Below are positions 3,735-52,284 of a DNA stretch of 64,000 nucleotides, piece after piece. Origin of the DNA: SAR324 cluster bacterium (GTDB lineage: Bacteria; SAR324; NAC60-12); the NCBI GenBank assembly GCA_015231885.1, contig JADGAT010000012.1, positions 5,890-69,889 of the forward strand, in the 5' to 3' direction. Below the pieces are notes generated by a model that saw only the letters and a list, made by a program, of their open reading frames with translations, did no database searches and was not told where the DNA came from. The first letter of the stretch is position 1, and each line of letters begins with the position of its first letter. The position numbers and the translations under genes were made by a program.

Positions 3735-3951
3735 GGTTTAGAAAGTTTTAGATTGAAAAAAATCATGGAAAACTAAGAAGAAATTATTGAATAAGCAAAG
3801 TCTATAAAGATACGATACGATGAATTTTAAAGTGCAGGAAGGAATGATATTTTATCAGAAAAAACTCTGGAATCATTTAAACTATAATTTTTCTCCTTGC
3901 AAGTTGATTTATGAGAACGGTGAAAACTCCATCATTATAAGCAGGTAAGAT

Positions 3952-4167
3952 ATGGCAGGAGTAGTGATAGTAGCTATTATAGGATACCTGGTGCTGTGTG
4001 CTATAGTCGCATGGATCGGACGCGGCTCCCGTATGGGATTTTGGGGAGTTTTTATATGTGCTTTAATCGTGACTCCGTTTATAAGTTTTATTTTTGTTAT
4101 TTTACTCGGCGCCAAAAACACGTCTCGAAAATATGAAATCCAGCCGAAGAGTTCTAAAAAACCATAA
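3952..4167 (+). CDS. Small two-TM membrane protein (hypothetical)
   Basis: 71-aa ORF with two hydrophobic helices (VVIVAIIGYLVLCAIVAWIG; VFICALIVTPFISFIFVILLG). Weak RBS. Low confidence that it is expressed. Confidence 0.3.
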   Translation: MAGVVIVAIIGYLVLCAIVAWIGRGSRMGFWGVFICALIVTPFISFIFVILLGAKNTSRKYEIQPKSSKKP

Positions 4168-4271
4168 GCAGGAAATTGGCCTTCAATTGAGGCCACGTTA
4201 ACTTGGAAACAAATGAGGTAAAGAGCATACAGGCTTCAGCATAATCATCCTAGGTATAAAAAGAGGAGAGT

Positions 4272-5770: not shown

Positions 5771-8635
5771 ATGAATAACGCTTTCGTCAAATTATTCAAT
5801 TTGGAAAAAGGCGAAGGAAAGCTGATCACATTAATGATCCTCTATTCTGCTGCTGTTGGAGTGCCTAGAATTTTCACAATTACGACCGCTCAGGCATATT
5901 TCTTAGAAAAGTTTGATGCTCAATCCCTACCTTACGTCTATCTCTTTGCCGCATTTATTAATATTTTCGTAGGAACTCTCTACCTGAAATTGGAACAAAA
6001 ATTGACCTTTAGCAAATTACTGGTCAGCATTTCCGTAACCCTGATTGTGGTAGAAGGCTGTTTGAATGTCCTGGTGAGAAGTGTAGACGGCCGTTGGCCT
6101 GCATTAGTCCTTGCGATCTGGAATGAGGCGGAATTCATTTTGTTGGTGATGATCTTTTGGGCGCTCGCTGGCAGGGTCTTTGATATTCGTCAAGGAAAGA
6201 GGCTCTTTGCCTTGATTGCTACTGGAGAAACCTTAACCGGAATTGTAGGAGGATTGACCATTCCGTCGATAGTCCAACAGATTGGAACAATCAATTTGCT
6301 GTTTGTCTCCATGGGAGGACTGGCAACATCTCTGTTCATCTTCTTTTTTCTGAAAAAATCTTTTCCTGAAAAGCTGGAAAAGCCTCAGTCTGCGGAAAAT
6401 AAATTCAGTACTGAAGAAAACTCTAAATTGTCCCTTAAGCAAGTATTGAATGACCGATACATGCTCATGATCTTCACTCTGGCATCGTGTGTGGTCTTGG
6501 TCGATTATATTGTAGCCAATGCCTTTTTTGATCGAGTGACACTTCAATATCCTGACAAGGATGCTCTTGCCAGTTTTATGGGGGTATTTTTCGCCGTTAA
6601 TTCTTTTCTTGGGTTGCTAGTTGGGATCTTTCTTTCAGGAAGGCTCCTAAGCAAATTCGGAATCTTATTAGGATTGCTGTCAATTCCAGTGACTGTAGGA
6701 CTTCATGCCCTCCCGGTTTCCGTCTTAGGGACCGTTGCAGAGCCGGGTATAGTTATTTTTTGGCTGATGGTCTCGGGAAGAATCTTTTTCAGAACATGTT
6801 ATTATTCGTTAAACAAACCAACTGTCAGTCTTCTTTATCAACCTTTCTCTGCAAATCAAAGAGGTCGTGTTCAGGGAATTGCCGATAGTGTTGTCAATCC
6901 GGTTGCAACAGGAGTGGCTGGACTCCTTTTGTTATTCCTCAATAAAGTTCTGAACTTCAATGCTGTCCAGCTTTGCATGGTATTGGTAGTGATTTCCGTG
7001 TTTTGGGGAATAACCGCATTTTTAACTCGTCAAGAATATACGAAACGCCTGGCGAAAGCACTGGCACGACGAGCATTAAATATGGAAAGCCTTACGTTTC
7101 ATGACAGCTCAAGCCTTGCAATCGTTGAAAACGCCCTGAAAAGCAGCAATGCTCACGAAGTGATTTATGCTATCGGAATGTTGGAAGAAGAACATCCAGA
7201 CAGTCTTGACCAATATTTTGAAGATCTATTGAATCACACGGAGCCTCAGGTTCGCCAGGAGACCTTAAATTGTATCGAACGCCTTCATCGTGAATCTTTG
7301 TTGAACTTGGTTTATCATCAACTCGATCAAGAAGACAATTCTTCGGTTAAAGCATCGGCAATTCGGACACTGGCTGCCTTAGAAGATGAAAATGTTTTAG
7401 ATGCGATTCGTCCTTATTTGGACAATAGGGATCAGGATGTTCAAGCGGGTGCCATTGTCGGTCTTTTAAGACATGGAGGGATTTCCGGCGTTCTGACAGC
7501 GGGTGCCAAGTTAATCAAATCAGCAGAATCAAGCCTATCTCATGAGAAAAGGTTTGCAGCTCGAGTCCTGGGAGAAGTGGGTATCAAAGATTTCTATCAA
7601 CCTTTGATTAATCTTCTGGACGATCCGGAATTGACTGTACGAAAAGAGGCTGTATTAGCAGCGGGAAAAATAGGGAATCCCCGATTGTGGCCGAAAATCA
7701 TCAAATTGCTAGGAGTTCAAGAGTTGCGTGGAGCGGCCATGCAGGCCCTGGTGAATGGAGGTGAAAGCAGCATCGGGTCATTAGAAGCGGTTTTCAATGA
7801 AAGAGATCAAAGCCAGGAGGTTCAGATCTGTATTGTGCAGGTAATGGGAAAATTGAAAGGAGAAAAGGCTCTCCGTTTTTTGAGGAAAAATATTGAATTT
7901 CCGAATGAAGACGTGCGCCACCCATTGCTAACTGCATTGAAGAATTGCCAATATCGATGTCCACCTGAGGAAGTGGGTTTTTTAAAAAAGATGATTTTCT
8001 CAGAAGTGGAAGACGCGGCATGGGCTATTGCCGCTATAAATGACCTTGCTTCCAATGATTTTAAGGATCTAGTCAGCAATGCTCTGCGGCAAGAAATTGA
8101 AAAAAACCGCGAGAGAATTTTCCTCCTGCTTTCTTTTCTATATGATGCCCAAACCATCTTGCAGGCATGGCAGCATATTAAAAACGGAACCAGGGAAAAA
8201 AGAACTTATGCCCTTGAACTGATTGATAACCTGATTCCTCAAGATCTCAAACAGGTGCTTTTTCCTTTGCTTGAAGAAATTACGATAGAAGAGAGTTATA
8301 TTCGGCTAAGCACAAAATTTCCTCAGGAATTGTTGGGCTCAGTTGGACGTTTAAAAGAAATCATTGAACGCTCTGAACAATGGACGACAAGCTGGGCTAA
8401 AAATTGCGCTCTCTATTTGATGGGAAAATCAGCGGCTCTTGAATTTTATGACAGTATTTTAACTATTTTAAACAATCCTTCGCACTCACCTCTCCTTCTG
8501 GAAACTGCGGTTTGGGCATTTGGACAACTGAACCCGGATGACCTGATTGAAACCTTAACACCATTGTTAAACCATGATACTCAACAAGTGAGAGAAATAG
8601 TCCAGATCACCATTGATCAGTACGAGAAAATTTAG
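5771..8635 (+). CDS. Membrane transporter domain (TLC/MFS-like, ~12 TM) fused to a C-terminal HEAT-repeat (PBS-lyase-type) domain
   Basis: 954 aa. The N-terminal ~430 aa is polytopic and hydrophobic, with a TLC-like start FNLEKGEGKLITLMILYSAAV. The C-terminal half has repeated HEAT units (DNRDQDVQAGAIVGLLRHGG, DDPELTVRKEAVLAAGKIGNP, EDVRHPLLTAL). Confidence 0.7.
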   Translation: MNNAFVKLFNLEKGEGKLITLMILYSAAVGVPRIFTITTAQAYFLEKFDAQSLPYVYLFAAFINIFVGTLYLKLEQKLTFSKLLVSISVTLIVVEGCLNVLVRSVDGRWPALVLAIWNEAEFILLVMIFWALAGRVFDIRQGKRLFALIATGETLTGIVGGLTIPSIVQQIGTINLLFVSMGGLATSLFIFFFLKKSFPEKLEKPQSAENKFSTEENSKLSLKQVLNDRYMLMIFTLASCVVLVDYIVANAFFDRVTLQYPDKDALASFMGVFFAVNSFLGLLVGIFLSGRLLSKFGILLGLLSIPVTVGLHALPVSVLGTVAEPGIVIFWLMVSGRIFFRTCYYSLNKPTVSLLYQPFSANQRGRVQGIADSVVNPVATGVAGLLLLFLNKVLNFNAVQLCMVLVVISVFWGITAFLTRQEYTKRLAKALARRALNMESLTFHDSSSLAIVENALKSSNAHEVIYAIGMLEEEHPDSLDQYFEDLLNHTEPQVRQETLNCIERLHRESLLNLVYHQLDQEDNSSVKASAIRTLAALEDENVLDAIRPYLDNRDQDVQAGAIVGLLRHGGISGVLTAGAKLIKSAESSLSHEKRFAARVLGEVGIKDFYQPLINLLDDPELTVRKEAVLAAGKIGNPRLWPKIIKLLGVQELRGAAMQALVNGGESSIGSLEAVFNERDQSQEVQICIVQVMGKLKGEKALRFLRKNIEFPNEDVRHPLLTALKNCQYRCPPEEVGFLKKMIFSEVEDAAWAIAAINDLASNDFKDLVSNALRQEIEKNRERIFLLLSFLYDAQTILQAWQHIKNGTREKRTYALELIDNLIPQDLKQVLFPLLEEITIEESYIRLSTKFPQELLGSVGRLKEIIERSEQWTTSWAKNCALYLMGKSAALEFYDSILTILNNPSHSPLLLETAVWAFGQLNPDDLIETLTPLLNHDTQQVREIVQITIDQYEKI

Positions 8636-9200
8636 TCAATTTCATTCAATTTGAGAATTCCGCATCTATCTTTTGACCAGGAGTTCATCATATTTGATTT
8701 GATGAATAAGCGGCATTGGTTTATCCTGACTCATTCCATCTATGAAGATCCGACCGGGAGGCTCGTGCCCTTCAGGTTTTCATAATAGGGATAAATCGTA
8801 GTTTATAGGGTCGCGCGGCAATCTGAATTTTGATAGTCAAGCCGTTGTGCAGGTGATTAGCTCTTCCGGCTGCGCTCTTACTGAAAAAAGTGAAAAATGG
8901 ACTTCATAATAACCTGTCGATCAAATGGTCGAACACAAAATTTTGTAATGCCCGAGTGGCAGGGTTTCTGATCGAGATTAGCCTGTTCAAGAAGTCTTCC
9001 AGTAGCAATAAATCGCTGTCAAAAAAGAAGCCAAATCATTTGACTATTTTCTGTCGAAGAAGCAGGAACTAATTTGAAAAAAATGCATCCCGCAAAGAAA
9101 AAATTTCAGACGACCAGCCTGATTTTTCTGAAAGAACTTGCCATGCCTTGAAGGCTCAGCAAAACTCTACTGCAAATGAGATTCTTCCAAAAAAAGATTT

Positions 9201-9620
9201 ATGCGACTAACCATTGAAAAAGTCTTATTTTTAAATTCCGTGGAAATGCTGGCCGATATTCCCCCGGAAATTCTTGCGGAACTTGCTTCGATTTTAACAG
9301 AGGTCTCGGTATCCGCTGAAGACGTGGTGGTGAAAGAAGGTGATATTGGAACTTCAATGTATATTATTATTGATGGATCAGCGAGGGTGGAAGTGAAGGG
9401 GAAAACTGTGGCAACTTTGAAAAGTGGACAAATCTTTGGAGAATTGGCAGCTCTTTCTCCAGAACCTCGAACCGCAACGATCACTGCTTTGGAAGATACC
9501 CAAATGTTTCGCCTGGATCAGGAAGCCTTGCATGAATTCATGAGGCAGTATATAGAAGTTGCAATTGGGATTATCAATTCTTTGTGCGGTCTTTTACAGA
9601 AGCAAATAACCTCCAAATAG
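9201..9620 (+). CDS. Stand-alone cyclic-nucleotide-binding (cNMP) domain protein
   Basis: 139 aa. GDIGTSMYIIIDGSARVEV...GQIFGELAAL...RTATITA matches the CAP-family cNMP-binding beta-roll motifs (FGELAL, RTA). Confidence 0.7.
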   Translation: MRLTIEKVLFLNSVEMLADIPPEILAELASILTEVSVSAEDVVVKEGDIGTSMYIIIDGSARVEVKGKTVATLKSGQIFGELAALSPEPRTATITALEDTQMFRLDQEALHEFMRQYIEVAIGIINSLCGLLQKQITSK

Positions 9621-9666
9621 CCATTTAAACTAAAAATTTTTTCGCCTCATCCGCTGATTAAACGCT

Positions 9667-11292
9667 ATGGAAATTATTAAATTACTCAGAAGATTCTCAC
9701 CGAAAATGGTGAATCATATTGTAGCCATGATTGTTTTTTCAGGTGTAGTTAATTCTGCTATCCTGGCCATTATCTGTGCGGTCGCTATTTCTCCAGAGAA
9801 AAATAGTTTTCGCTTTTTCATGCTATACCTGGCTACGCTTTCAATCTTTCTCTTCTCAAAACGATATAGTTTGATCAAATCCTCAATCCTTGCAGAAACA
9901 GCAGTGGGCCAGGTCCGTTTGAGAATCATTGATAAAATACGCCATGCCGATTTGAGATTGCTGGAGCAGATCGGGCGTTCCTCCATCCATTCACGTTTAA
10001 CAACAGACACAACCGAAATTTCGATGGGATTTAGCGGGATGATTCATTCCGCTCAAGCGATGGTGATGGTTGTGTTTGCAGTTATGTTCTTGGCTTTTAT
10101 TTCACTCCCCATATTTTTGATGACAATCACAGTTTTTGGAATTTGTGGGGTGATTTATTTCCTCAATGAAGAAAAGGCAGAAATATTGATTCGGGATTCC
10201 TCCCGGAAAGAAACTGAACTCTTCAGTCTTGTTGATCACGTCATTGATGGCTTTCAAGAACTTCGAATCAATAAAACAAAAAATGATTCTCTGTTTGATC
10301 AATATCTCCGCCCTTTGGCAGATACAACAACAAATGTGAAATTGAAATTTTTCTATCTTCTGAACAACGGACTTATTTTCTCCATCTCCTTTGTCCATAT
10401 TTTAATCATCTCAACGATTTTTATTCTGCCTCGATTTATTACAATCACCGAGATTACGATAATACAGGCGATTGCGATTATTCTCTACATTGTTGGGCCA
10501 TTTAATCATGTTTTAGGAAGTATTTCGATTTTTTCCCGAACTGCAATCGCTATTGAAAATCTTTATAAATTTGAAGAAGATTTGGAAGTTCCGGATCACA
10601 ATTATGATGCTCCTGGCAGCAGTGAACTGGCCAATATAGTTGAATTCAAACAGATAGAATTGATTGATTTTGAGTTTCATTACGCAGATCCGAATGGAAC
10701 TCCGGCTTTTGGCATAGGACCCTGTGATCTCAAAATCAAAGCCAATGAGACATTATTTATCGTTGGTGGCAATGGAAGCGGTAAATCGACTTTTCTTAAA
10801 TTGCTGACAGGCTTGTATTATCACGAAAATGGAAACCTCAAACTGGATGATATTTCAGTTAATCTTTCCAATTATCAGGACTATCGAAACCTGTTTTCGA
10901 TTGTTTTCACTGATTTTCATTTATTTGATCGGTTGTACGGATCTGAAGAAGCAGAGGAAAGTGTTGTCAATGAGTTATTGCATCAGATGGAAATCGAGCA
11001 CAAAACAAAATTTGTTGATGGTAGGTTTTCCAATATCAATTTGTCTACCGGTCAAAAAAAGCGATTGGCTTTAGTAGCGGCTATCTTGGACGAAAAACCA
11101 ATTTATGTGTTTGATGAAGTCGCAGCAGATCAAGACCCTCAATTCCGCCAATATTTCTATGAAACTATTTTGCCTGATTTGAAAAAAAAGGGAAAAACTA
11201 TCATAGCGGCTACCCACGATGACAAATACTTCCATACTGCTGACCGCATTCTGAAAATGGAATATGGGCAATTTATCCCGTATGAGCCCTGA
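9667..11292 (+). CDS. ABC transporter with fused permease and ATPase (SyrD-like cyclic-peptide exporter family)
   Basis: 541 aa. The N-terminal ~300 aa has 6 TM helices. Walker A GGNGSGKST. ABC signature LSTGQKKRLAL. Walker B VFDEVAADQD. The architecture matches the ~550-aa SyrD/cyclic-peptide-transporter family. Confidence 0.85.
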   Translation: MEIIKLLRRFSPKMVNHIVAMIVFSGVVNSAILAIICAVAISPEKNSFRFFMLYLATLSIFLFSKRYSLIKSSILAETAVGQVRLRIIDKIRHADLRLLEQIGRSSIHSRLTTDTTEISMGFSGMIHSAQAMVMVVFAVMFLAFISLPIFLMTITVFGICGVIYFLNEEKAEILIRDSSRKETELFSLVDHVIDGFQELRINKTKNDSLFDQYLRPLADTTTNVKLKFFYLLNNGLIFSISFVHILIISTIFILPRFITITEITIIQAIAIILYIVGPFNHVLGSISIFSRTAIAIENLYKFEEDLEVPDHNYDAPGSSELANIVEFKQIELIDFEFHYADPNGTPAFGIGPCDLKIKANETLFIVGGNGSGKSTFLKLLTGLYYHENGNLKLDDISVNLSNYQDYRNLFSIVFTDFHLFDRLYGSEEAEESVVNELLHQMEIEHKTKFVDGRFSNINLSTGQKKRLALVAAILDEKPIYVFDEVAADQDPQFRQYFYETILPDLKKKGKTIIAATHDDKYFHTADRILKMEYGQFIPYEP

Positions 11293-15954: not shown

Positions 15955-18900
15955 ATGAATAAAAATCTCGAGCACAAGTATCTTGAAGCACTCAAAAAAT
16001 CATCAGGAAAAATCAAAGAACTACTGGCTGAAATTGACACGTTAAAGCAAAGAGATTCTGTTGCTATCATTGGAATGGGGTGCCGTTTTGCAGGAGGAGC
16101 AGACAGTCCGGAAAGATTTTGGGATTTACTGAAAGAAGGAAGAGATACGATTGTTGAAGTTCCCCCGGACCGTTGGAATATTGACGAGTATTTTGATTCG
16201 AATATAGACGCTCCTGGAAAAATGTATTCCCGATATGGAGGATTTCTGGATGAAGTGGATAAGTTCGATTGTTCCTTTTTTGGAATTTCGCCTCGAGAAG
16301 CAGAATCCCTGGACCCTCAACACCGTCTTTTGCTGGAAGTTAGCTGGGAGGCACTTGAAAATGCTGGTCAAAGTGTTGAAGCCCTGAAAGAAAGTGCCAC
16401 AGGAGTTTACATCGGGATTTTCAGTTATGAATACGGAAGGGTCCGTTTGGTTGGAGGAGAAGAGCAGAAGATTGATGCCTATTCCGTCACGGGGGTATCC
16501 CACAGCATGGCTGCAGGAAGGATTTCCTATTTATTTGGATTTCAAGGGCCGAACATCGCTATAGACACTTCCTGTTCTTCGTCTTTGACCGGTTTGCATT
16601 TGGCTGTGGCCAGCTTACAAAGCAGGGAATCCGACCTCGCTCTGGCAGGCGGGGTTAATTTTATGATCTCGCCCGAGTGCCAAATTGGATTTTCAAAGCT
16701 CAATGCACTTTCCCCAGATGGGCACTGTAAAACTTTTGATGCTGCAGCTAACGGAATTGGGAGAGGTGAAGGATGCGGGATGGTTGTATTGAAACGTCTC
16801 TCGGATGCTATTTCAGATGGAGATTCGATTTTAGCCGTTATCAAGGGTAGTGCGATCAATCAGGATGGTTCCAGCAATGGATTGACAGCCCCTAACGGTA
16901 TTGCCCAACAGAAAGTAATTACTCAGGCACTGAAAAATGCACAACTTTCACCGGAAGACGTGAGCTATATTGAAGCTCATGGAACCGGCACTCCTCTGGG
17001 AGATCCTATCGAAATTCACTCTTTGGCAAAAGTCTTCAAAAATCAGGAACTGCTTGTGGGTTCCGTAAAAACAAATCTGGGACACCTGGAAAGTGCATCA
17101 GGTATCGCTGGCCTGATCAAAGTTCTTCTGTCAATCCAGCACGAGCAAATTCCTCCTCATCTTCATTTTCAAACTCCCAATCCTCATATCAATTGGAATG
17201 AATCGGCATTCAAAATTCCCACAGAAAACACCCCCTGGCCCAAAACTGCACGACCACGCATTGCTGGTATCAGTGCTTTCGGGTTGAGTGGAACCAATGC
17301 CCATGTCTTGGTCGGAGAACCCCCTGCTAACGATGATAGCTCAGAGGCTGAGCGTGATACTGGCGCTCAGGACCGTCCAGTTCACATTTTGAATCTTTCA
17401 GCAAAAAATAACGAAGCCCTTCACGAACTGGCTCATAAATACATAAAATATTTTGAGCAATTCGATTCAGATTCCGAAAGCGTAGCTGGAAATATCTGCT
17501 TTACTGCCAATGCGGGACGATCTCATTTTAAGCACCGAATTTCTCTGATTGGAGAATCCGTTCAGAAAATCGGAGAAAAATTATCGGATTATCTAAAAGG
17601 AATTCCACCAAAAGATTTTTTTCAAAGCAACGAGACTGAAAAACCCAGACTTCAAATTGTTTTTTTGTTCACGGGGCAGGGGTCACAATATAAAGGGATG
17701 GGGCTGGAGTTGTACAAAAGCCAACCGGTCTTTAAAAAGATACTCGATCAATGTGATCAACTGTTTACACCTCATCTGAATAGGTCGATCATAGATTTGA
17801 TGTATGCAGAAGAGACTCCGGAAGACCTGCTCGAGCAGACACGATATACCCAGGCAGTCATTTTTTCTATTGAATATGCTTTGGCCCGTTTATGGGAACA
17901 TTGGGGAATCAGAGCTGCTGCAGTGATGGGGCACAGTGTAGGAGAGTATGTTGCTGCCAGCATTGCCGGTGTGTTAAGCCTTGAAGACGCAGTCAAGCTC
18001 GTGGCAGCCAGAGGGAAGCTGATGCAGGCTCTGCCTGAAGGCATCATGGCTGCTGTTTTTGTAGAGGAAAGCATTGCTTTGGATGTGATAGCAGAGTTTG
18101 AAGAAAAAGTTTCTATTGCAGCAGTCAATTCTTCTAAAAACGTGGTGCTTTCTGGAGAAGAAGAAGCCGTGCTGCAGGTTCTGAAAAGATTTGACGAAAA
18201 AGGAATTGCTTCCCGCCATCGACTACTGAAAGTTTCACATGCGTTCCATTCGCCGATGATGGACCCGGTTCTGAACGAATTTAAAACCATTGCTTCAACG
18301 ATCCATTATTCAAAACCTAGACTTCCCCTGATATCCAATCTCACTGGAGAACCAGTCCGGATTTCGACAAATTCTTCTTCGGATGAATGGCCGGAGTACT
18401 GGACTCGCCATATTCGGGAAACCGTTCGTTTTTATGACTCGATCCAGTACTTGGAACAGAAAGATTATCAGATCTTTTTAGAAATTGGAGCAAGTCCCGT
18501 ACTTTCAGGTCTTGGAAGGCAAAGTGTTTCCCAAAATCACTTACTTTGGCTCCCCTCTCTTCGGCAGGGGCAAAGTGATTGGAATCAAATTTTAAGGTCA
18601 TTGGCTCAGTTGTATGTAAATGGGGCTAAAATTGACTGGGAGAGATTTGACAAACCTTATAGCCGGAAAAAACTAGCCCTGCCGACCTATCCGTTTCAAC
18701 GAAAACGCTACTGGGTCGCTCCTCCTCATCTTCACCGAAGTGGCGAAAAAAGTAGAGAAACTCTTGAATTTTCTCCCAATACACCCCAACCGACTGGAGA
18801 GGCAAAGTCGGTTCTGGAAAAGATGATGATCCAGCAGCACGAGACCATGAAAAAGCAGTTGGAGATTATGAGCATGCAGCTCAAAACTGCCAAAGCGCAA

Positions 18901-21900
18901 ACATCGGCCACTACCCGGAAAAATGAGGAAATTTCGTCCCCCCCTGAATTTTGCCTGGATCAAAAAAAAACTGAATTTAAAAGAAGCCTCAGCCACCGGA
19001 TGTCCTCCGGTCAAAAGCGTCTGTTCATCATCACCCAGTTTTCAGGAGGAGAAAGAAGTTATCATCTCTCAGGAGCCTGGTGGGTCAAGGGGACATTAGA
19101 CCTTCCCAAACTTGAGCAGTGCATTCAGCTGCTGATTGATCGTCATGAAAGCCTGCGGACAGGTTTTGTGATTGAGGAAGAGGAATGGGTTTGTCAAATT
19201 CATGAGCGGGTGCCGTTTGAAATTACGATGAAGGAAGCAGAGCACAGCAATGCTGATGGTCATGTTTCTGATTTTATTCAGGCTTTTGATTTGAGCAATC
19301 CCCCATTGATCAGGGTTGGACTGGTCCGCTTTTCAGAAGAGCGTTATCTGATGCTTGTGGACGCTCATCATATAGTTTTTGACGGACTTTCCATGAGCCT
19401 TTTTTCCAGGGAGCTGATGACGCTCTACCAGGGCTATCCCCTTCGAGCCCTGAGAGCCCAGTACCGGGACTATGTCTCCTGGCAGGAGAGTTTTTTTCAG
19501 GGCCATGCTTTCAGGCACCAGGAAACATACTGGCTGAATCAATTTTCCGGGGAGCTGCCCGTTTTGGATTTACCGCTGGACTACTCCCGTCCCTCCCTGT
19601 CGAGCTTTGAGAGGGCCGATGTCACGATTGAACTGGAAAGCGCTGAACTGATCGCTTTCAGCCAGTCTCAGGGCGTCTCGTTGTACATGGTTTTAGTTGC
19701 TGGCTATGATCTTTTATTGTCCCGTTTAACCGGGCAGGAGGAGATCATCATTGGCAGTGTCAGCACTCATCGAGCCGCAGAAGAGTTCAATGAGATCATT
19801 GGCATGATCACCAATACCCTGGCCCTGCGGGCTTTCCCGGAATCTCAAAAAACTTTTGACAGGTTTCTAAAGGAAGTCAAAACCATTTGTCTTGAGGCCT
19901 ATGCCCACCCTGATTATCCCTTTGAGCGGCTGGTTGAGCAACTGGGATATGCCCAGGCCCCCAACCGCCATCCGATCTTTGATACGATGTTTTCCTACGA
20001 AAAAGCGGATGAGCGGGTTTTAAGATTGAAGGATTTGGAAATCACTCCTTATTTTGAAAAACAAAGTTACATGTTTGATCTGGCTTTGGATGTGATTGAA
20101 CAGGAGGATCTGTTAAGATTTAATTTTGAATACGATGCCAGCCTTTTCAGGAAAGAAAGCATTGAAAGATTCTCGGGATATTTCATCAGAATTCTGCAGG
20201 AAGTCACGAGGGACCCGAAGCAGCAGCTGGGAGAGATTGAGATGCTCTCCGGGGAAGAAAAGCGGCAGATTCTGGAAACGCTCAACGCCACGGAGCGGGA
20301 TTATCCCGGAGAGAAAACGATTGTGGATTTGTTTGAGGAACAGGTTCTTCTGAGCCCTCAGAAAACCGCCCTTATTTTTGCGGATATTCGCCTGAGTTTC
20401 CATGAATTGAATGAGCGTGCGAACAAGGTCGCAGTCAATCTGAGAGAGAAATACCGGATTCGGCCGGAAGATCGAGTGGGAATTCTCCTGGATCGTTCTG
20501 AATGGATGGTGATTGCCATGCTGGGGATTCTCAAAGCCGGTGGGGCTTATGTTCCGATAGATCCGGACTTTCCCTCAAAACGAATCGATTACATTCTCAA
20601 AGACAGTCAGTGCCGGCTGGTGTTGACAGAAGAGTCAGTCAGAAGCAGGGTCACTCTGGATAAAACCGTTGAAGTCGCGGAGGTTTACTGGATTTCCACA
20701 GGAAAGGGCAGCAATCCGTCATCGTTGAGCCAAGCTTCCCATCTGGCTTATCTGATTTATACTTCCGGCTCCACAGGCAGTCCGAAAGGAGTGATGATCG
20801 AACACCGCAATGTGATCAGTTTCGCGAGTAATCTGAAATCGGGTTTCGGCATGCAGTCCAGTGACCGGATTTATGCTCTGACTCCGCTGAGTTTTGATAT
20901 TTCAGCACTGGAATTGATATGCAGCCTTGTCAATGGAATGGAAGTGACCCTGGCTTCAAAAGAAGAGCAGTCGGATCCAGACGCTGTTGCCGGGGTTTTA
21001 GAGAAGGGGGAGATCAGTGTTTTACAAATCACTCCCTCAAGACTGAGGTGGCTGCTTGAATCCCGGGAGATCGAACTTTTAAACACCCTGAATGTGCTTC
21101 TGGTGGGAGGAGAAGCGCTGCCTCAATCACTTTCCGAAAAGCTGTGTTTGCTTTCTCATCCCAAAATTTTCAATGTTTATGGCCCGACAGAAACGACAAT
21201 CTGGTCAACAGCCCATCAGCTGCTTGACCCGGGAGTCAGCATCGGCAGGCCGCTGCTGAATGAGGAGGTCTATATATTGTCAGAAAACAATCAACCGCAA
21301 CCTTATGGTGTTGCGGGGGAATTGTGCATTGGCGGTGCCGGGGTAGGGCGGGGTTATGTCAATCGCCCGGACTTAACTCAGCAGCAATTTATCGAGAATC
21401 CTTTTCGGGAAGGAGAAAGGCTTTACCGGACTGGAGATTTGGCCTGTTGGCTGCCGGAGGGACAGATCAGGTTTTTGGGAAGAAAAGACTCTCAGGTGAA
21501 AATAAGGGGCCACCGGATTGAGCCGGGAGAGATCGAGCAGGTGCTGCGGAAGTATCCCGAAGTAAGGGAAGCTGTCGTGATTGCCAGGGAAACTGAGGGC
21601 GGGCATCACGTTCTGGCGGCATATCTGGAGGGAGATCAGGAATGGGACAATCAGGCCCTGCGTGGATATTTATCAGAGCTTCTGCCAGAATATATGATTC
21701 CCTCTTCCTTTGTCCCCATGAAGCGGCTTCCTCTCAATTCCAGCGGAAAAATAGACAAACGGGCCCTGCCTGATCCTCAGGAAGGGTCCTTGATTTCCTC
21801 GACCTACGAGGCTCCGCGCAATCGGCTTGAAAAGGAACTGGTCGAGATCTGGGAAGAGATTCTCGGACAAAGTCCGATCGGGATTCATGACCATTTTTTT

Positions 21901-24900
21901 GAGCGGGGAGGGCACAGTCTGAAAACGGTTCAGCTCCTTTCCCGCATTCATAAGCGGCTTGAGCGGCAAGTTTCTTTGAAACAGATCTTCGCCACTGCGA
22001 CCATCGCAGGATTGGCTGAAGTGATTCAAGGGACGGATCACAGGGAGTTTGAGATGATTGAAACCGTGGCGGAGGCGGAGCATTATCCTCTTTCCCATGC
22101 CCAGAGGCGCTTGTGGGTCATGCATCAGCTGGAAGAAAGCTCCACCGCCTACAATGTGACCGGGGCTTTGCTGCTGAAAGGCAGCCTGGATCAAGGGGCT
22201 CTGCTTGAAGCCCTGAATACTCTTCTTCTTCGTCATGAGTCCCTGCGCACCACCTTTCTTCCTCATCAAGGAGAGCCACGCCAGAAAATTCATCAGTCCC
22301 CTGATCTTGATTGTGAGGAAATCGACCTAAGGGGTGAAATAGATGCCCATCAGAAAGCCCGTGCGATTGTCAGGGAGGAAGGACAGCGTTCTTTCATTTT
22401 AACAGCAGGACCCCTGATCCGTGTCAAATTACTGCAACTCGATAAAGCGGCACATGTGCTCGCAGTCAATCTGCACCACATCATCTGCGACGGATGGTCG
22501 CTTGGTGTGCTGACCCGTGAATTGGGAATGCTTTATCAGGCTTTTCACCGCCGTGAGGCCAACCCTTTAAAGCCGCTTCTGATTCAATACAAAGATTATA
22601 CAGCCTGGCAGGAAAACTGGCTCAAAAGCGAGGAGGCTGAGAAACAGCGGGCATACTGGCATGGACGTTTCTCAGGAGAATTAGCGGTTTTGGAATTGCC
22701 ACTCGACCGTCCCCGTCCGCTGGCACAGACTTTTCAGGGAAAGATTCTGCGCAAAGAGTTCAATGAGGCATTGAGCGAACAAATAAGAACATTGATGCGC
22801 CGGGAAGAGATGACCCTTTTTATGGGACTGCTGGCCCTGGTCAAGGTTTTGCTGTACCGCTACAGCGGACAGGAACAGATTATCGTGGGAAGCCCTGTTG
22901 CCGGCAGAAAACATCTCGATTTGGAAGAGCAGATCGGCTGTTATATCAATATGCTCCCCCTCAGTGATAAAATAGAAGGTTCTCAATCCTTTCAATCTTT
23001 TCTGGCTCAAGTCAGGCAAACTACAGAGGAAGCCTATCAGCACCAGGATTATCCATTTGATCAGCTTGTTGATGAACTGAATCCAGAGAGGGATCTTTCC
23101 CACTCTCCTCTCTTTGACGTGATCGTCTCCCTGCAAAATCAAGATCAGCCTCCTGTTCAACTGGAAGCGCTTTCCATAGAGGAGTTTTCCTTCTCCCTGG
23201 AAGTCAGCCGGTTGGACCTGACCTTCAATTTTATTGAACGGGAAAAAACACTGCTTTGTGAGATTGAGTACAATACCAGTTTGTTCGATCAAGAGCGAAT
23301 TGAGCGTATGGGAGATCATCTGGAAACCCTGGCGCATTCTGCAGTCAACAATATCACTCAATCAGTCGATACTCTGGAAATACTGACGGAGCAGGAAAAA
23401 CAGCAGTTGCTGTTGGCGTTCAACGCCACTCAAAGCGATTATCCGAAAGACAAATCAGTGGTTGAACTGTTTGAGGAACAAGTGCTCAAAACTCCTGAAG
23501 CCACGGCACTGGTCTTTGAAGAGACCCGTTTGACTTATCGTGAATTGAATCAGCGGGCCAATCAAATTGGGGTTTATTTGCGGGAGCAGTTTCAAGTTGA
23601 AGCGGATGATGTGGTGGGTGTTTTCACCGAACACTCCGAGAGGATGATTGTCGCTGTTCTCGGGATTCTCAAGTCCGGTGCGGCTTATTTGCCCATTGAT
23701 CCGTTATACCCGGATGAGCGTCTATTCCACATACTCCAGGAAGCCGAGCCCAAAATTATCTTTGCCGACACCACGGTGGAGACGCGTCTGGCCCAGTCGG
23801 GGATTCCCCTCTGCTCTCTGGAGCTGAATCCTGAAATTGAATCGAGATCTCAGGACAACCTGCCGATTATCTGCACTCCCAGAGCGCTGGCATACATCAT
23901 ATACACGTCGGGGACAACGGGAAATCCGAAAGGCTCTTTGATTGAACACCAATCCATTGTGCGTTTGGTCAAAAACACCAATTACATTGAGATCACGCCT
24001 TCAGACCGAATTTTACAAACAGGGTCCCTCGCATTTGATGCTTCCACTCTTGAAATCTGGGGAGCCCTGCTCAATGGAGCTGAACTGCATATTGCCAGAG
24101 AAGACAGTTTGCTCAATCCCGCTGAGTTCCGCAAAATACTTGCTCAAAATCAAATCTCCATTATCTGGCTGACCGCGGGCTTGTTCAATCAATTCATTGA
24201 TACTGATCCGGAAATGTTCTCCGGTCTTAAACAGCTTTTTACTGGAGGAGAAAAACTTTCTCCCGTTCATATCACTAAGGCTCGGCAAAACCATCCTGCT
24301 TTGATGATTACCAATGGATATGGACCCACAGAAAACACAACCTTCAGTACTTGCTACCAAATAGAAAAGGAATTCGACAAGGATATTCCCATTGGCAAAC
24401 CCGTTTCCAATACACGCGCTTATATTCTGGGCAACGCCAATCAATTGCAGCCTATCGGAATAGTTGGTGAATTGTGTTTTGCTGGCGATGGTCTGGCCAG
24501 GGGTTATCTGAAAAATGAGCAGCTTAGCCGGGAAAAATTTGTTGCCAATCCGTTTGAACCCGGCGAGAGAATGTACCGCACCGGTGATTTCTGCCGCTGG
24601 GATGCTGAGGGTAATATCGAAATATTGGGACGTATAGACGATCAGGTCAAAATAAGAGGATACCGTGTTGAATTGGGAGAGATCGAACACACGCTGCAGA
24701 GCCATACCCATGTCCAGGAAGCCGTGGTCATTGTCAGGGAAGTAGAAGGGGCATCCAAAGAATTAATTGCCTACCTCGTCGGAAATCAGAAATTGAGTGT
24801 GGCTGATTTATCGCAGTTTCTCTCAAAAACTTTACCCAACTACATGATCCCTTCCTACTTCGTTCAGATGGATCAACTCCCGCTCAATCCGAGTGGTAAA

Positions 24901-26601
24901 ATTGACAAGCGGGCGTTGCCGGATCCTGATGAAGGAACACGGTCTTCTTCTGCTGTTTATGAAGCCCCGCACAATTCTTTGCAAAGCCATCTGATCCGAT
25001 TGTGGGAAGAAACACTGGGACAGAGCCCAATTGGGATTCATGATAATTTTTTTGAGAGAGGCGGTCATAGCTTGAAGGCAATTCAGCTGCTTTCTCGAAT
25101 TCACCAGCAATTGGAAATAAGCGTTGGTCTGAAAGATATTTTTATGGCCACTACTGTTGCTAAACTGGCGGAATTGGTACAAAGCAATAACCCCAGGCAA
25201 TTCAAAGCGATTCAACCAATAGCGATTGCTGAGCATTACGAACTATCATATGCTCAAAGACGATTGTGGCTTTCTCATCAATTGGAAGAAAATCCAATTG
25301 CCTACAATGTTGCTGATGCCATGCTTTTGGAAGGGGATTTAGATACAGAAGCTCTTTATAAAGCGCTTAAAACACTGGTAGAACGTCATGAATCCTTGCG
25401 GACTACCTTTCTAAATATTGCTGGAGAACCCCGACAAAAAATCCATCAAAGCCTGGATTTAAAAATGGATGAGATCGATTTGACTGAGGAAAAAGATGTG
25501 TTTCAACTGGCAGAGGAAATCGTACAGAAAGAAGGACATCGCCTGTTTGATTTAGCAGCAGGTCCCTTGGTTCGGGTGAATTTATTGATGCTAAAACCGG
25601 CCCTTCATGTGCTGGTAATCAGCCTTCATCATATCATCTGTGATGGATGGTCTATTGAAATTCTGATTCGGGAACTGGGTGTCCTTTATCAGGCTTTTCA
25701 CCGGGGAGAAAGCTGCCTTTTGACACCGCTATCTATTCAGTACAAAGACTATGCGGCCTGGCAGAAGAACTGGCTATCCAGTCCTCAAGCAGAGCAGGAA
25801 CAAAATTATTGGCACAAACAACTGTCCGGTTCCCTGCCTGTTCTGAAATTACCAACAGACCGTCCTCGTCCCTCCGTTCAGAAATTTCAGGGAAAATCCA
25901 TTTGGATTGATTTTGATCCGGAACTGACAGCGAAAATACAAAATTTGCTGCATCAACAGGAAGTGACATTATTCATGGCATTGATAAGCATCATCAAAGT
26001 TTTGTTGTATCGATATAGCGGCGAAGAAGACATTCTGATTGGTATTCCCGTTGCCGGAAGAAATCATGTTGCTTTGGAAGATCAAATAGGTTGTTATCTC
26101 AATACTCTGGTCTTGAGAGACACTGTTAAAGGAGAGGAATCCTTTGAAGTGTTGCTCTCAAAGATCAAGCAAACTACTCTGGAAGCCTTTCAACACCAGG
26201 AATATCCCTTTGACCACCTGTTGGATGAATTGAATCTTGAAAGAAATTTAGCCCACTCTCCACTCTTTGATGTCATGGTTGTTTTGCAGAATCAGGGGCA
26301 ATCCCATTTGGAGCTGGATGAATTGACAGTTAAGCCCTTTCCTTTTTCACTGGAAGTGAGCAAATTTGACATAGCATTCAATTTTATGGAAGAAGAGGAT
26401 CGGCTGCTCTGTGAAGTTATCTTCAATACAGTACTATTTGATGAGGAACGCATTCGCCGCATGGAGGAACATTTTGAAATGCTGATTCGCTCTATCACAG
26501 AGGATATCGCTCAACCCATCCACTCCCTGCAATTGTTAGCTGAACAAAAAGAGCCGAAAGTACTGGAGAGCATCGAAGTTTCAACCCATTTCAATTTTTA
26601 A
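15955..26601 (+). CDS. Hybrid PKS-NRPS megasynthase: KS-AT-(no ACP)-C-A(Gly code)-PCP-C-A(Val-like code)-PCP-C
   Basis: KS motifs DTSCSSSL, EAHGTGT, NLGHLESASG (~16057-17335). AT motifs GHSVGEY and VSHAFHS, a malonyl-type signature (~17650-18720). C1 HHIVFDG at 19363-19386. A1 motifs A3 LAYLIYTSGSTGSPKG through A10 NSSGKIDKRALP, pocket D-I-L-Q-L-G-V-I-W. PCP1 FFERGGHSLK (~21895). C2 YPLSHAQRRLW / HHIICDG (~22080-23380). A2 pocket D-A-L-W-F-G-G-T-F. PCP2 (~25050). C3 (~25230-26598, HHIICDG at 25627). Confidence 0.95.
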   Translation: MNKNLEHKYLEALKKSSGKIKELLAEIDTLKQRDSVAIIGMGCRFAGGADSPERFWDLLKEGRDTIVEVPPDRWNIDEYFDSNIDAPGKMYSRYGGFLDEVDKFDCSFFGISPREAESLDPQHRLLLEVSWEALENAGQSVEALKESATGVYIGIFSYEYGRVRLVGGEEQKIDAYSVTGVSHSMAAGRISYLFGFQGPNIAIDTSCSSSLTGLHLAVASLQSRESDLALAGGVNFMISPECQIGFSKLNALSPDGHCKTFDAAANGIGRGEGCGMVVLKRLSDAISDGDSILAVIKGSAINQDGSSNGLTAPNGIAQQKVITQALKNAQLSPEDVSYIEAHGTGTPLGDPIEIHSLAKVFKNQELLVGSVKTNLGHLESASGIAGLIKVLLSIQHEQIPPHLHFQTPNPHINWNESAFKIPTENTPWPKTARPRIAGISAFGLSGTNAHVLVGEPPANDDSSEAERDTGAQDRPVHILNLSAKNNEALHELAHKYIKYFEQFDSDSESVAGNICFTANAGRSHFKHRISLIGESVQKIGEKLSDYLKGIPPKDFFQSNETEKPRLQIVFLFTGQGSQYKGMGLELYKSQPVFKKILDQCDQLFTPHLNRSIIDLMYAEETPEDLLEQTRYTQAVIFSIEYALARLWEHWGIRAAAVMGHSVGEYVAASIAGVLSLEDAVKLVAARGKLMQALPEGIMAAVFVEESIALDVIAEFEEKVSIAAVNSSKNVVLSGEEEAVLQVLKRFDEKGIASRHRLLKVSHAFHSPMMDPVLNEFKTIASTIHYSKPRLPLISNLTGEPVRISTNSSSDEWPEYWTRHIRETVRFYDSIQYLEQKDYQIFLEIGASPVLSGLGRQSVSQNHLLWLPSLRQGQSDWNQILRSLAQLYVNGAKIDWERFDKPYSRKKLALPTYPFQRKRYWVAPPHLHRSGEKSRETLEFSPNTPQPTGEAKSVLEKMMIQQHETMKKQLEIMSMQLKTAKAQTSATTRKNEEISSPPEFCLDQKKTEFKRSLSHRMSSGQKRLFIITQFSGGERSYHLSGAWWVKGTLDLPKLEQCIQLLIDRHESLRTGFVIEEEEWVCQIHERVPFEITMKEAEHSNADGHVSDFIQAFDLSNPPLIRVGLVRFSEERYLMLVDAHHIVFDGLSMSLFSRELMTLYQGYPLRALRAQYRDYVSWQESFFQGHAFRHQETYWLNQFSGELPVLDLPLDYSRPSLSSFERADVTIELESAELIAFSQSQGVSLYMVLVAGYDLLLSRLTGQEEIIIGSVSTHRAAEEFNEIIGMITNTLALRAFPESQKTFDRFLKEVKTICLEAYAHPDYPFERLVEQLGYAQAPNRHPIFDTMFSYEKADERVLRLKDLEITPYFEKQSYMFDLALDVIEQEDLLRFNFEYDASLFRKESIERFSGYFIRILQEVTRDPKQQLGEIEMLSGEEKRQILETLNATERDYPGEKTIVDLFEEQVLLSPQKTALIFADIRLSFHELNERANKVAVNLREKYRIRPEDRVGILLDRSEWMVIAMLGILKAGGAYVPIDPDFPSKRIDYILKDSQCRLVLTEESVRSRVTLDKTVEVAEVYWISTGKGSNPSSLSQASHLAYLIYTSGSTGSPKGVMIEHRNVISFASNLKSGFGMQSSDRIYALTPLSFDISALELICSLVNGMEVTLASKEEQSDPDAVAGVLEKGEISVLQITPSRLRWLLESREIELLNTLNVLLVGGEALPQSLSEKLCLLSHPKIFNVYGPTETTIWSTAHQLLDPGVSIGRPLLNEEVYILSENNQPQPYGVAGELCIGGAGVGRGYVNRPDLTQQQFIENPFREGERLYRTGDLACWLPEGQIRFLGRKDSQVKIRGHRIEPGEIEQVLRKYPEVREAVVIARETEGGHHVLAAYLEGDQEWDNQALRGYLSELLPEYMIPSSFVPMKRLPLNSSGKIDKRALPDPQEGSLISSTYEAPRNRLEKELVEIWEEILGQSPIGIHDHFFERGGHSLKTVQLLSRIHKRLERQVSLKQIFATATIAGLAEVIQGTDHREFEMIETVAEAEHYPLSHAQRRLWVMHQLEESSTAYNVTGALLLKGSLDQGALLEALNTLLLRHESLRTTFLPHQGEPRQKIHQSPDLDCEEIDLRGEIDAHQKARAIVREEGQRSFILTAGPLIRVKLLQLDKAAHVLAVNLHHIICDGWSLGVLTRELGMLYQAFHRREANPLKPLLIQYKDYTAWQENWLKSEEAEKQRAYWHGRFSGELAVLELPLDRPRPLAQTFQGKILRKEFNEALSEQIRTLMRREEMTLFMGLLALVKVLLYRYSGQEQIIVGSPVAGRKHLDLEEQIGCYINMLPLSDKIEGSQSFQSFLAQVRQTTEEAYQHQDYPFDQLVDELNPERDLSHSPLFDVIVSLQNQDQPPVQLEALSIEEFSFSLEVSRLDLTFNFIEREKTLLCEIEYNTSLFDQERIERMGDHLETLAHSAVNNITQSVDTLEILTEQEKQQLLLAFNATQSDYPKDKSVVELFEEQVLKTPEATALVFEETRLTYRELNQRANQIGVYLREQFQVEADDVVGVFTEHSERMIVAVLGILKSGAAYLPIDPLYPDERLFHILQEAEPKIIFADTTVETRLAQSGIPLCSLELNPEIESRSQDNLPIICTPRALAYIIYTSGTTGNPKGSLIEHQSIVRLVKNTNYIEITPSDRILQTGSLAFDASTLEIWGALLNGAELHIAREDSLLNPAEFRKILAQNQISIIWLTAGLFNQFIDTDPEMFSGLKQLFTGGEKLSPVHITKARQNHPALMITNGYGPTENTTFSTCYQIEKEFDKDIPIGKPVSNTRAYILGNANQLQPIGIVGELCFAGDGLARGYLKNEQLSREKFVANPFEPGERMYRTGDFCRWDAEGNIEILGRIDDQVKIRGYRVELGEIEHTLQSHTHVQEAVVIVREVEGASKELIAYLVGNQKLSVADLSQFLSKTLPNYMIPSYFVQMDQLPLNPSGKIDKRALPDPDEGTRSSSAVYEAPHNSLQSHLIRLWEETLGQSPIGIHDNFFERGGHSLKAIQLLSRIHQQLEISVGLKDIFMATTVAKLAELVQSNNPRQFKAIQPIAIAEHYELSYAQRRLWLSHQLEENPIAYNVADAMLLEGDLDTEALYKALKTLVERHESLRTTFLNIAGEPRQKIHQSLDLKMDEIDLTEEKDVFQLAEEIVQKEGHRLFDLAAGPLVRVNLLMLKPALHVLVISLHHIICDGWSIEILIRELGVLYQAFHRGESCLLTPLSIQYKDYAAWQKNWLSSPQAEQEQNYWHKQLSGSLPVLKLPTDRPRPSVQKFQGKSIWIDFDPELTAKIQNLLHQQEVTLFMALISIIKVLLYRYSGEEDILIGIPVAGRNHVALEDQIGCYLNTLVLRDTVKGEESFEVLLSKIKQTTLEAFQHQEYPFDHLLDELNLERNLAHSPLFDVMVVLQNQGQSHLELDELTVKPFPFSLEVSKFDIAFNFMEEEDRLLCEVIFNTVLFDEERIRRMEEHFEMLIRSITEDIAQPIHSLQLLAEQKEPKVLESIEVSTHFNF

Positions 26602-26635
26602 TCACTAAGGATAAACCGATTCTATTGGAGTCACT

Positions 26636-27350
26636 ATGGACAATTCACGTATTTCTTTAACCAGCAGTGAGTATGGTCATTTCAAGGATTTTTGGAGTAA
26701 ACAACTGCGTCTCCTGGATGATTCGTTTCAATTCACGCTCAATAAATCGGTAGGTTCCCAGACTCGTCAAATGAAACAGATCTCGTTTTGTTTGGAAGTT
26801 TCTCAGCAGGAAACCATTTCCGATATCACCAGGGACAGTCCTTTAGAAACTTTTATCATCCTGTTGTCAGCTTACTATATTCTTCTTTCTCGATATATGA
26901 ATACAAATGAGGTTGTGGTCAATACTCCACTCCTCTCCCAAAAAAGCATTGACACTCTCTATGCACCGCATGTTTCCCTGATTGGCAGCATTTCACCGGA
27001 AGACAGCCTCAAGGATCTGATCATTAAAACCAATCAGACGGTTTCGAATAGTTACACTCATCAAAATTTTCCTTTAGATTTGGTGACCAGTCAAAAGCAA
27101 TTAAAACACCTCGATCAGTTGACCAATGTATTCATGACATTTGATGAGATTCACAGGGCACCTGAAGATTTGGGACTCTATGATTTCGTCATTGAGATCA
27201 ATCGTCCTCCGGAATCCCTCCTCACTCAGATTAAGATCAGATACAATGCAGGCATGTTTGATGAGCCTTTCATGCTCAATTTGATCACACATTACAAAAA
27301 TATCGTTTCTGATTTTAAAGATCTCAAATCTAGTCTCAAGAATGTGAAGA
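26636..27350 (+). other. Partial condensation domain (C-terminal subdomain only) at the N-terminus of the 26636-32254 NRPS
   Basis: The sequence aligns to the post-HHxxxDG portion of the intact C domains in the upstream gene (YKDYTAWQ region onward). No HHxxxDG is present. The upstream gene already ends with a complete C domain. Confidence 0.7.
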
Positions 27351-51207: not shown

Positions 51208-51212
51208 GCAGT

Positions 51213-52259: not shown

Positions 52260-52284
52260 CAATAATTTGATAGTCAATATAGGT

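Follow-up and report, generated by a model that had tools for sequence, protein, structure and literature searches.

How does a nonribosomal peptide synthetase (NRPS) line continue across a gene boundary where the first gene ends in a complete condensation (C) domain and the next begins with half of another? The question is raised by a 64,000-nucleotide stretch of DNA from a SAR324 cluster bacterium (GenBank assembly GCA_015231885.1, contig JADGAT010000012.1, positions 5,890 to 69,889; hereafter the window, numbered from its first letter), which holds a hybrid polyketide synthase (PKS)/NRPS cluster. In it, an open reading frame (ORF) at 26636..32254 encodes an 1872-aa protein that starts with a half-C domain in front of its adenylation (A) domain. 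A sequence-only reading of the window had taken this half-C for the scar of a module swap or recombination, perhaps inert, perhaps acting as a docking or communication element. Our analysis points to a functional, non-catalytic domain that probably serves as a platform for the A domain and also marks, and probably mediates, an inter-subunit junction between a protein ending in a C domain plus tail and the subunit that follows; on balance we think this reading the right one.

We refer to such an N-terminal domain, which consists of a C-lobe only, as C*. Database hits and eight fetched loci were annotated with hidden Markov models (HMMs) of our own for C, A, T and radical SAM (rSAM) domains.

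The gene boundary and the half-C domain

By domain annotation, the upstream gene (15955..26601) encodes a megasynthase of the order KS-AT-C-A-T-C-A-T-C. Its terminal C domain, C3, is complete: aa 3089-3530 cover positions 3-445 of our 446-position C HMM, HHIICDG lies at aa 3225 (nt 25627), and AlphaFold models it with confidence (pLDDT 85.7, pTM 0.82). C3 presumably catalyses the bond between the chain made upstream and the Thr-derived residue that the downstream protein carries. The label of a Thr module had been given from the sequence alone, and it holds: the motifs FDFSVWE, LNQTP, VIFGG and NMYGITETTVH of the A domain yield the specificity code D-F-W-N-I-G-M-V-H, and DFWNIGMVH is tabulated as a Thr code (PMC3708778). 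The features around the boundary are as follows.

25219..26544, + strand: C3, complete C domain at the C-terminus of the upstream protein (our C HMM, AlphaFold)
26545..26598, + strand: 18-aa C-terminal tail of the upstream protein, ...EQKEPKVLESIEVSTHFNF-COOH, with F-x-F at its end (proposed docking peptide)
26599..26635, + strand: TAA stop (26599-26601) and 34-nt spacer, with GGAG at 26627-26630
26636..27361, + strand: C*, aa 1-242, C-lobe only, non-catalytic (Pfam, our HMM, AlphaFold)
27362..27424, + strand: canonical C-A linker (KILNETEVDQLLNHFNNTRADFP) between C* and A (length and motif)

The gene boundary at 26599-26635 is real. The ORF begins at the first ATG past an in-frame stop, behind the GGAG, and the 34-nt gap holds no hidden N-lobe in any of its three frames. 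The same gene split is present in the ortholog at locus L001 (74% identical) and at loci L003, L005, L007 and L008. The sequence-only reading had described these surroundings correctly, with a complete C domain and its HHIICDG at the end of the upstream gene and a distance of 34 nt from the stop to the next ATG. It had also asked for a frameshifted N-terminal half upstream of 26636, which no frame of the gap encodes, and for an HHxxxDG that correction of a sequencing error might bring back; none is recoverable, and the boundary is the same in the 74%-identical ortholog and at dozens of loci.

Homology of the half-C is confined to the C-lobe. Residues 10-249 match only positions 188-456 of the Pfam Condensation family (PF00668; E 2.1e-15), and with our C HMM the match runs over positions 191-445 (E 1.6e-15), with HMM position 191 falling at aa 10. 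There is no HHxxxDG in aa 1-260 of the ORF; the sole copy in the 1872-aa protein, at aa 1540, belongs to the C-terminal E-like domain. Motif C5 carries a deletion, C7 (RDxSRNP) is missing, and the Arg at HMM position 284, which is 100% conserved in 144 full C domains, is replaced by Gln. The half-C thus has neither the N-lobe active-site motif nor the invariant Arg before C5 that would identify a catalytic condensation domain, and it has the layout of a C*/ADA-type domain: N-terminal, directly before an A domain, with homology to the C-lobe only. In both respects the earlier description was accurate, namely that about 240 aa ahead of the A domain align to the C-terminal C subdomain only and that the catalytic HHxxxDG is lacking, and the profile matches place the region in the C-lobe rather than in the unrelated docking domain for which that reading had allowed. 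Its proposal to find a donor by alignment could be carried through in part. All three C domains of the upstream protein, C1, C2 and C3, were aligned, and the half-C shares 20-25% identity with their C-terminal halves (best C2, E 1e-17); at such low identity no donor can be named among the C domains of the cluster, and the nearest relatives are other C* domains.

A C domain split between two proteins, with its N-lobe upstream and its C-lobe downstream, was considered when the upstream protein at L003 looked short; it was dropped when that protein proved to be C*-A-T-C with a full terminal C domain.

C* domains and the tails that precede them

The exact 1872-aa protein is on record at NCBI from a SAR324 metagenome-assembled genome. 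Its homologues number in the hundreds, and an A domain interrupted by an insert is common to about 95 of the 120 best hits. Where the interrupted A domain is internal, a full C domain lies ahead of it; where it is the first A domain of the protein, 235-290 aa without HHxxxDG come first. Among about 350 C-type domains of related proteins there are 92 N-terminal C* domains (about 255 aa) and no internal domain of the same class. C* is not tied to the rSAM insert, because 27 of the 92 precede ordinary A domains; the other 65 precede interrupted ones. A search with the C* profile gave a ranking dominated by giant multi-C proteins, so 150 independent giant NRPS representatives from it were re-annotated with our HMMs, and 44 of them begin with C*, typically in the order C*-(A-T-C)n.

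These domains group with one another rather than with full C domains. Over the columns of the lobe, mean identity is 31.5% within C* and 22.7% between C* and the C-lobes of full C domains; the nearest neighbour is another C* for 86 of 87 C* domains, and C* is nearest to no full C domain. Full C-lobes share a signature of the 100% conserved Arg ("AGR") before C5 and RDxSRNP (C7), whereas the columns of C* feature IYKQ, a Lys in TFKELL (91%), (E/D)NIH (I 85%, H 76%) and an Arg in FSFxR. The copy in the window belongs to the class by its N-terminal position, its score and its residues: a C* profile that excluded its own clade gives it 113.4 bits, compared with 64.3 bits from a profile made of 144 ordinary C-lobes, and the copy retains K126 in SLKDLI, DEIH (about aa 169-172) and the Arg of EINR, the class residues being K313, I362-H363 and R394 in HMM numbering. 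Its closest relatives are in P0002 (59% identity) and in P0010/L003 (45%).

The half-C is also maintained. Compared with the 74%-identical ortholog at L001, the proportion of nonsynonymous differences (pN) is 0.227 and that of synonymous differences (pS) 0.833 (a ratio of about 0.27), close to the 0.22/0.84 of the E-like domain in the same protein; only pN and pS are given, and no dN/dS, because synonymous sites are saturated. The intact frame, together with a pN far below pS, rules out neutral decay. Taken as a set of sequence comparisons, these results mark C* as a distinct and ancient class, restricted to the N-termini of NRPS subunits and under purifying selection.

The only internal half-C domains that we saw are the three of protein P0156 (5423 aa), in which T-C(full, HHIIxDG)-halfC-A-T occurs three times in cis (aa 931-1642, 2249-2961 and 3568-4282). 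They score 142-155 bits as ordinary C-lobes and 82-102 bits as C*, and since they fit the ordinary profile better, this layout of C plus half-C appears independent in origin. We had considered P0156 as a natural single-chain proxy for the C|C* junction and dropped it, as its half-C domains are not of the C* class.

The connection of C* to the A domain is that of a C domain in cis. A linker of 21 aa joins the two domains in 71 of 79 junctions of the C*-A kind and in 117 of 131 cis ones, and both kinds of junction share the motif LSxxEKxQLLxxFNxTxxxYP. An AlphaFold model of aa 1-1200, built on a 32-sequence alignment, has a pLDDT of 85.3 (about 80 over C*, aa 1-250) and a pTM of 0.78. Its best Foldseek matches in the PDB are C-A didomains, namely Txo1 (6oyf), the C1A1 of McyB (8hlk), LgrA, EntF and SrfA-C, with TMq 0.45-0.48 (TMq 0.47 and TMt 0.66 for Txo1), compared with TMq 0.30-0.31 for A-only structures. 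The model agrees with a C* placed on the A core where a C-lobe canonically sits. Within the PDB, the C* profile matches only the C-terminal halves of full C domains, so no isolated C* structure has been solved.

We then asked what stands before a C* gene. In the fetched loci, a complete C domain closes the NRPS subunits encoded ahead of C*-starting genes, as in [C*-A-T-C][C*-A(R)-T-C] at L003 and [C*-A-T-C][C*-A-T-C](rSAM)[C*-A(R)-T-C-A-T-C](rSAM)[C*-A-T-C...] at L008. Their C-termini are alike: the upstream protein of the window ends in ...EVSTHFNF, and others in ...QFHF, ...RFNF, ...EFNF, ...DFVF, ...SFDF, ...EFDF or ...DFRF. Of 269 NRPS proteins, 72 end in [FW]-x-[FILV], a frequency to be set against 1.5% expected by composition. 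The logo of the tail reads [ED][ED][ED]-x-[DE]-F-[DGN]-F-COOH, with an acidic fraction of 0.29 at positions -15 to -4 against 0.13 overall. The tail usually extends 14 or 17 aa past the C domain (17-18 aa in the window) and is without the motif of the cis linker. In a model of the window's C3 alone, the final 19 residues have a pLDDT below 50, as expected for a flexible docking peptide. Proteins that end in an E-like domain carry a different, COM-donor-like tail (TPSD...EELD), and the protein after them starts with a full C domain.

A genome scan extended the sample. It was run with a narrower C* alignment, the broad one having no conserved stretch, and it added 55 loci from Aminicenantes, Deferrimicrobium, Omnitrophota, Acidobacteriota, Halanaerobiales, Bacteroidales, KSB1, Herbinix, Brevibacillus, Fischerella and Nostoc. 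For the window and 62 loci, the adjacent gene pairs, counted by unique tails, are:

Preceding protein with a Phi-x-Phi tail: 44 pairs with a C* start in the next gene, 0 with a full-C start
Preceding protein with another or a COM-like tail: 10 pairs with a C* start in the next gene (several near-variants), 7 with a full-C start

Tail type and the start of the next gene are associated (Fisher p = 4.5e-5, on counts that are phylogenetically non-independent). The protein before a C* subunit is either a C-terminated NRPS subunit or a stand-alone B12-rSAM enzyme.

This second kind of neighbour carries the same tail. About 17 stand-alone B12-rSAM proteins encoded directly upstream of C* genes bear an acidic F-x-F-COOH end (...GDWNF, ...GDFDF, ...TDFDF, ...ADFSI, ...EEDFDF), and the rSAM homologue at L001 (15895-17598), which lies ahead of a full-C-starting gene, ends in ...MEELALLESI. 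The F-x-F tail did not occur on intervening aminotransferases, a CAAX protease or a B3/4 protein. The tail is thus portable between protein families and tracks the N-terminal domain of the next subunit.

Tailed stand-alone rSAM proteins of about 550-585 aa are encoded at L005 (11859-13526), L006 (8268-9983) and L008 (8231-9952 and 19064-20782), and there are further ones at L049 (2170-3924) and at many of the loci L011-L060. At L004, from Clostridium tagluense, a 364-aa protein (8718-9830) with weak PP-loop ATPase/tRNA-methyltransferase-HUP hits ends in ...NMEVEFDF, which adds a further enzyme family to those with the tail; its gene is flanked by those of an NRPS subunit that ends in C (...NIEFDF) and of a C*-A(rSAM) protein.

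Proposed function of C* and competing explanations

We propose that C* sits on the A core at the site taken by the C-lobe in cis and, by analogy with described domains of this kind, would give the A domain its usual structural platform. The N-terminus that bears it may at the same time receive the upstream protein by its flexible F-x-F tail, with the conserved basic residues specific to C* as candidate tail contacts. The tail would tether C3 so that the downstream T domain could deliver its aminoacyl thioester in trans, which would make C3|C*-A(rSAM)-T-E an elongation module split over two proteins. The platform and docking roles are mutually compatible. A bolder version, which we offer tentatively and which may well prove wrong, is that C* acts as receptor in an NRPS docking system not classified before, in which a portable [DE]-F-x-F-COOH tail plugs into C* subunits, joins split modules (C|C*-A) and recruits tailoring enzymes in trans, above all stand-alone B12-rSAM enzymes. 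As to the earlier suggestion of a docking or communication element, the correlation between tail and C* is strong (44 against 0), and docking itself is what we infer from it.

Several observations weigh against this combined role. The tail of the window protein follows the pattern [DE]-[FW]-x-[FILV]-COOH except at position -4, where it has His and not Asp or Glu. The C* of the window and its three closest relatives form the most divergent sub-group of the class, about 20% identical to the others, and its C5 region is degenerate. Ten of the 54 C*-starting genes are preceded by proteins without a clean motif, and the loci were sampled through homology to the family, which is the source of the non-independence of the counts. 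At several loci both an NRPS subunit and an rSAM protein with the tail precede one C* gene, so a simple picture of one tail and one receptor is incomplete. The tail could also bind at the A domain or at another part of the subunit that bears C*.

If the tail binds elsewhere or serves some other purpose, C* might be a purely structural or activating platform of the A domain without any part in docking. The canonical linker and the predicted canonical placement on the A core agree with such a role, as do the deletion phenotype of the C* of ACVS and a weak match to the ADA region of Lys2 (both discussed below), and C* also occurs on subunits without a visible upstream NRPS gene, which may be starters. 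What this account leaves unexplained is why the tail of the preceding protein, even on unrelated rSAM enzymes, corresponds to the kind of start, C* or full C, of the next gene; we consider it unlikely as the whole explanation, and compatible with the combined platform and docking role as a partial truth. We give still less weight to the possibility that C*-A(rSAM)-T-E is an initiation module which starts a chain of its own, like ACVS or ThdA, with C3 serving another acceptor. Described C* domains do sit in starter modules, and the cluster seems non-collinear, with more PKS and NRPS genes downstream past three reverse-strand genes. However, the two genes are 34 nt apart and conserved as an orthologous pair, the rule linking tail to C* holds at successive junctions of multi-subunit lines (L008, L005), and a C-terminal C domain needs an acceptor T domain in trans, which the next gene supplies. 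An initiation role is therefore improbable.

Recombination inside C domains drives NRPS evolution, and an inert relic left where C meets A by a recent recombination or swap of modules would suit an upstream protein that stops inside the equivalent of the C-A linker and a half-C whose C5 and C7 motifs are degenerate. Yet the frame is intact and pN lies far below pS at saturated divergence, the same architecture recurs across many phyla, and the domain belongs to a distinct class with conserved residues of its own and is only 20-25% identical to any C domain of the cluster. We regard a relic as highly improbable: the scar proposed by the sequence-only reading gives way to an old, widespread and exclusively N-terminal class, and its alternative of an inert half-C to a domain under purifying selection (pN 0.227 against pS 0.833). 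Most improbable of all is an artefact (a frameshift, a nonsense mutation or an assembly error) or a C domain truly split over two proteins. The window does come from a metagenome-assembled genome, but the upstream C domain is complete, the 34-nt gap encodes no N-lobe in any frame, and the identical boundary is found in independent assemblies and taxa.

N-terminal half-C domains are routinely annotated as truncated or inactive relics, and the case in the window is one of a conserved class with its own signature. A natural and widely used split point at the C-A border, coming with a short tail that can be transferred and with a defined N-terminal partner, could serve the splitting and recombination of NRPSs and would extend the toolbox of COM, PAX and SLiM/beta-hairpin elements. 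The tail shared by stand-alone B12-rSAM enzymes suggests a route by which on-line tailoring enzymes are recruited to the assembly lines, for the most part uncharacterised, of Aminicenantes, SAR324, Clostridia and others. If this is true, subunit order and enzyme recruitment may be predictable from the type of tail and of N-terminal domain. The junction code and the adjoining rSAM-interrupted A domain are the parts of most specialist interest for follow-up.

Remaining features of the window and comparison with known systems

Behind the C-A linker, the ORF continues as follows.

27425..27772, + strand: N-terminal part of the Thr-type A domain, motifs A1-A2 (A HMM positions 1-106 at aa 264-369)
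27773..29410, + strand: insert of about 545 aa in the A domain, an rSAM core (CPFKCAYC) and then a B12-binding domain (domain annotation)
29411..30577, + strand: rest of the adenylation domain, A3-A10 (domain annotation)
30620..32251, + strand: T, E-like domain (HHLVIDGVSW) and COM-donor-like tail (TPSDIDYDGLNIEELEEVLDSLP) (domain annotation)

The insert (aa about 380-925) lies between A-domain motifs A2 and A3. Its order is circularly permuted with respect to stand-alone B12-rSAM proteins: insert aa 32-257 correspond to stand-alone aa 234-457, and insert aa 397-541 align to stand-alone aa 78-221. Its best NCBIfam matches are ApyD, PhpK-type and KedN5-type methyltransferases, all far below their cut-offs. 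Radical-SAM-interrupted A domains are found in Aminicenantes, Desulfobacterales, Clostridium tagluense and Abyssisolibacter, and the word 'radical' is absent from a 2020 catalogue of interrupted A domains.

The COM-donor-like tail at 32150-32251 closes the C*-A(rSAM)-T-E protein. Only one NRPS gene in the window has a full C domain at its start, 55518..61670 (C-T-C-A-T-C); it lies 23 kb downstream, separated from the C* gene by three reverse-strand genes and PKS genes, and this distance between the COM-tailed protein and a gene starting with a full C suggests a non-collinear gene order. Between the PKS and this last NRPS gene are a KS-III, an overlapping sulfotransferase ORF, an SDR and a stand-alone 446-aa AMP-binding enzyme (51204-53148 and 54165-55505), and downstream of it is a homologue of the D-component of 2-hydroxyglutaryl-CoA dehydratase (61696-62898). 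In the upstream megasynthase, Pfam and our T HMM find two T domains only, both of the NRPS modules, and the interval from AT to C1 (within 15955-19000) has about 120 aa without a carrier-protein domain; the ortholog cluster at L001 opens with PP-binding and a class-III aminotransferase instead of KS-AT. Further upstream, a 954-aa ORF (5771-8635) fuses a TLC ATP/ADP-transporter-like region (aa 108-418) to several HEAT/PBS-lyase HEAT repeats, an unusual fusion for a free-living marine bacterium.

Domains of the C-lobe-only kind are known at N-termini as the C* of ACVS, the ADA of Lys2/NPS3 (PMC7884236) and the C* of ThdA (PMC7253712), all in initiation contexts. The C* of ACVS (Nocardia lactamdurans, Penicillium rubens) is, like that of the window, about 230 aa long, N-terminal and placed before an A domain; it models as an isolated C-lobe without HHxxxDG or N-lobe, with C6/C7 partly kept (PMC7884236). 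It is non-catalytic yet required for module activity, and its deletion abolishes ACV formation; a platform role has been shown genetically and biochemically for it and is reported for the ADA of NPS3 (PMC7884236). The ACVS domain belongs to the initiation module of a single polypeptide, and the window C* has been compared with it by description only. The window module looks like a split elongation module instead, because the gene before its C* subunit closes with a whole C domain and an F-x-F tail.

The ADA (adenylation-activating) domain of the fungal alpha-aminoadipate reductases Lys2/NPS3 is, in the account given by PMC7884236 of Kalb et al. 2015, likewise C-lobe-like, N-terminal and needed for adenylation. 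The window C* matches the N-terminal (ADA) region of the Lys2 model TIGR03443 weakly (E 1.4e-5, 22.7 bits, where the cut-off for the whole protein is 1030). ADA is part of a eukaryotic carboxylate reductase and not of a multi-subunit NRPS, and it has no known docking partner. Closer in setting is the thermoactinoamide synthetase ThdA, a bacterial NRPS with a truncated, 'probably inactive' C domain before its first A domain, which its authors suggest may influence A-domain selectivity (PMC7253712). That domain lies in a starter module, and neither a partner upstream that ends in C nor a tail has been described for ThdA.

The same junction may exist in systems already described. The lipopeptide synthetases of Paenibacillus are organised as A-T-C, in polymyxin PmxE/PmxA/PmxB (PMC3708778) and pelgipeptin PlpD/PlpE/PlpF (PMC3479019); like the upstream protein of the window, their subunits end in C and are followed by subunits whose annotation begins with A. 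PmxB (1102 aa) and PlpF (122.9 kDa), annotated as 'A-T-TE', are about 230-250 aa longer than A-T-TE needs, and Paenibacillus and Bacillus NRPSs in our hit list begin with C*. With 'A-T-TE' proteins about 240 aa too long, the junction is, judging from sizes only, probably present and unannotated in the polymyxin and pelgipeptin synthetases; a search for Paenibacillus relatives of the PmxB/PlpF kind returned three fragments only.

Known classes of NRPS docking are COM (E|C), PAX three-helix bundles (T|C) and SLiM/beta-hairpin pairs (T|C or Cy), and a C|A junction within a module is not among the classes listed in a 2021 review of docking domains (PMC9113145). As in these systems, a short element at the upstream C-terminus would pair with an element at the downstream N-terminus, and the F-x-F tail resembles SLiMs in being short, acidic and predicted to be disordered. 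The window junction differs in lying inside a module (C|A), where COM, PAX and SLiM junctions lie between modules, and in its partners: the tail ends in aromatic-x-aromatic, and the N-terminal partner is a 240-aa C-lobe and not a helix-hand, helix or beta-hairpin. With no N-lobe, a protein that opens directly with the C-lobe and an upstream partner that ends in C, it does not fall under COM acceptors, in which the N-lobe of a full C domain forms a helix-hand, or under beta-hairpin and PAX domains, small dedicated N-terminal folds ahead of C or Cy whose upstream partners end in T or E. Engineered units offer another parallel: the XUC exchange units of Bozhuyuk et al. 2019 reportedly consist of C-acceptor-subdomain-A-T-C-donor-subdomain, and their fusion point between the lobes of the C domain nearly coincides with the natural start of ORF 26636..32254. 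Unlike in XUC, the upstream protein of the window keeps its whole C domain, so that the C-lobe is duplicated and the C domain undivided. The C|C*-A junction, the F-x-F tail and the rSAM-interrupted A domains are undescribed in the literature we searched, which included few subscription journals, so that their absence from it is weak evidence. Against this background, the window element is a C*/ADA-type domain in a new context, that of a split elongation junction with a tail code.

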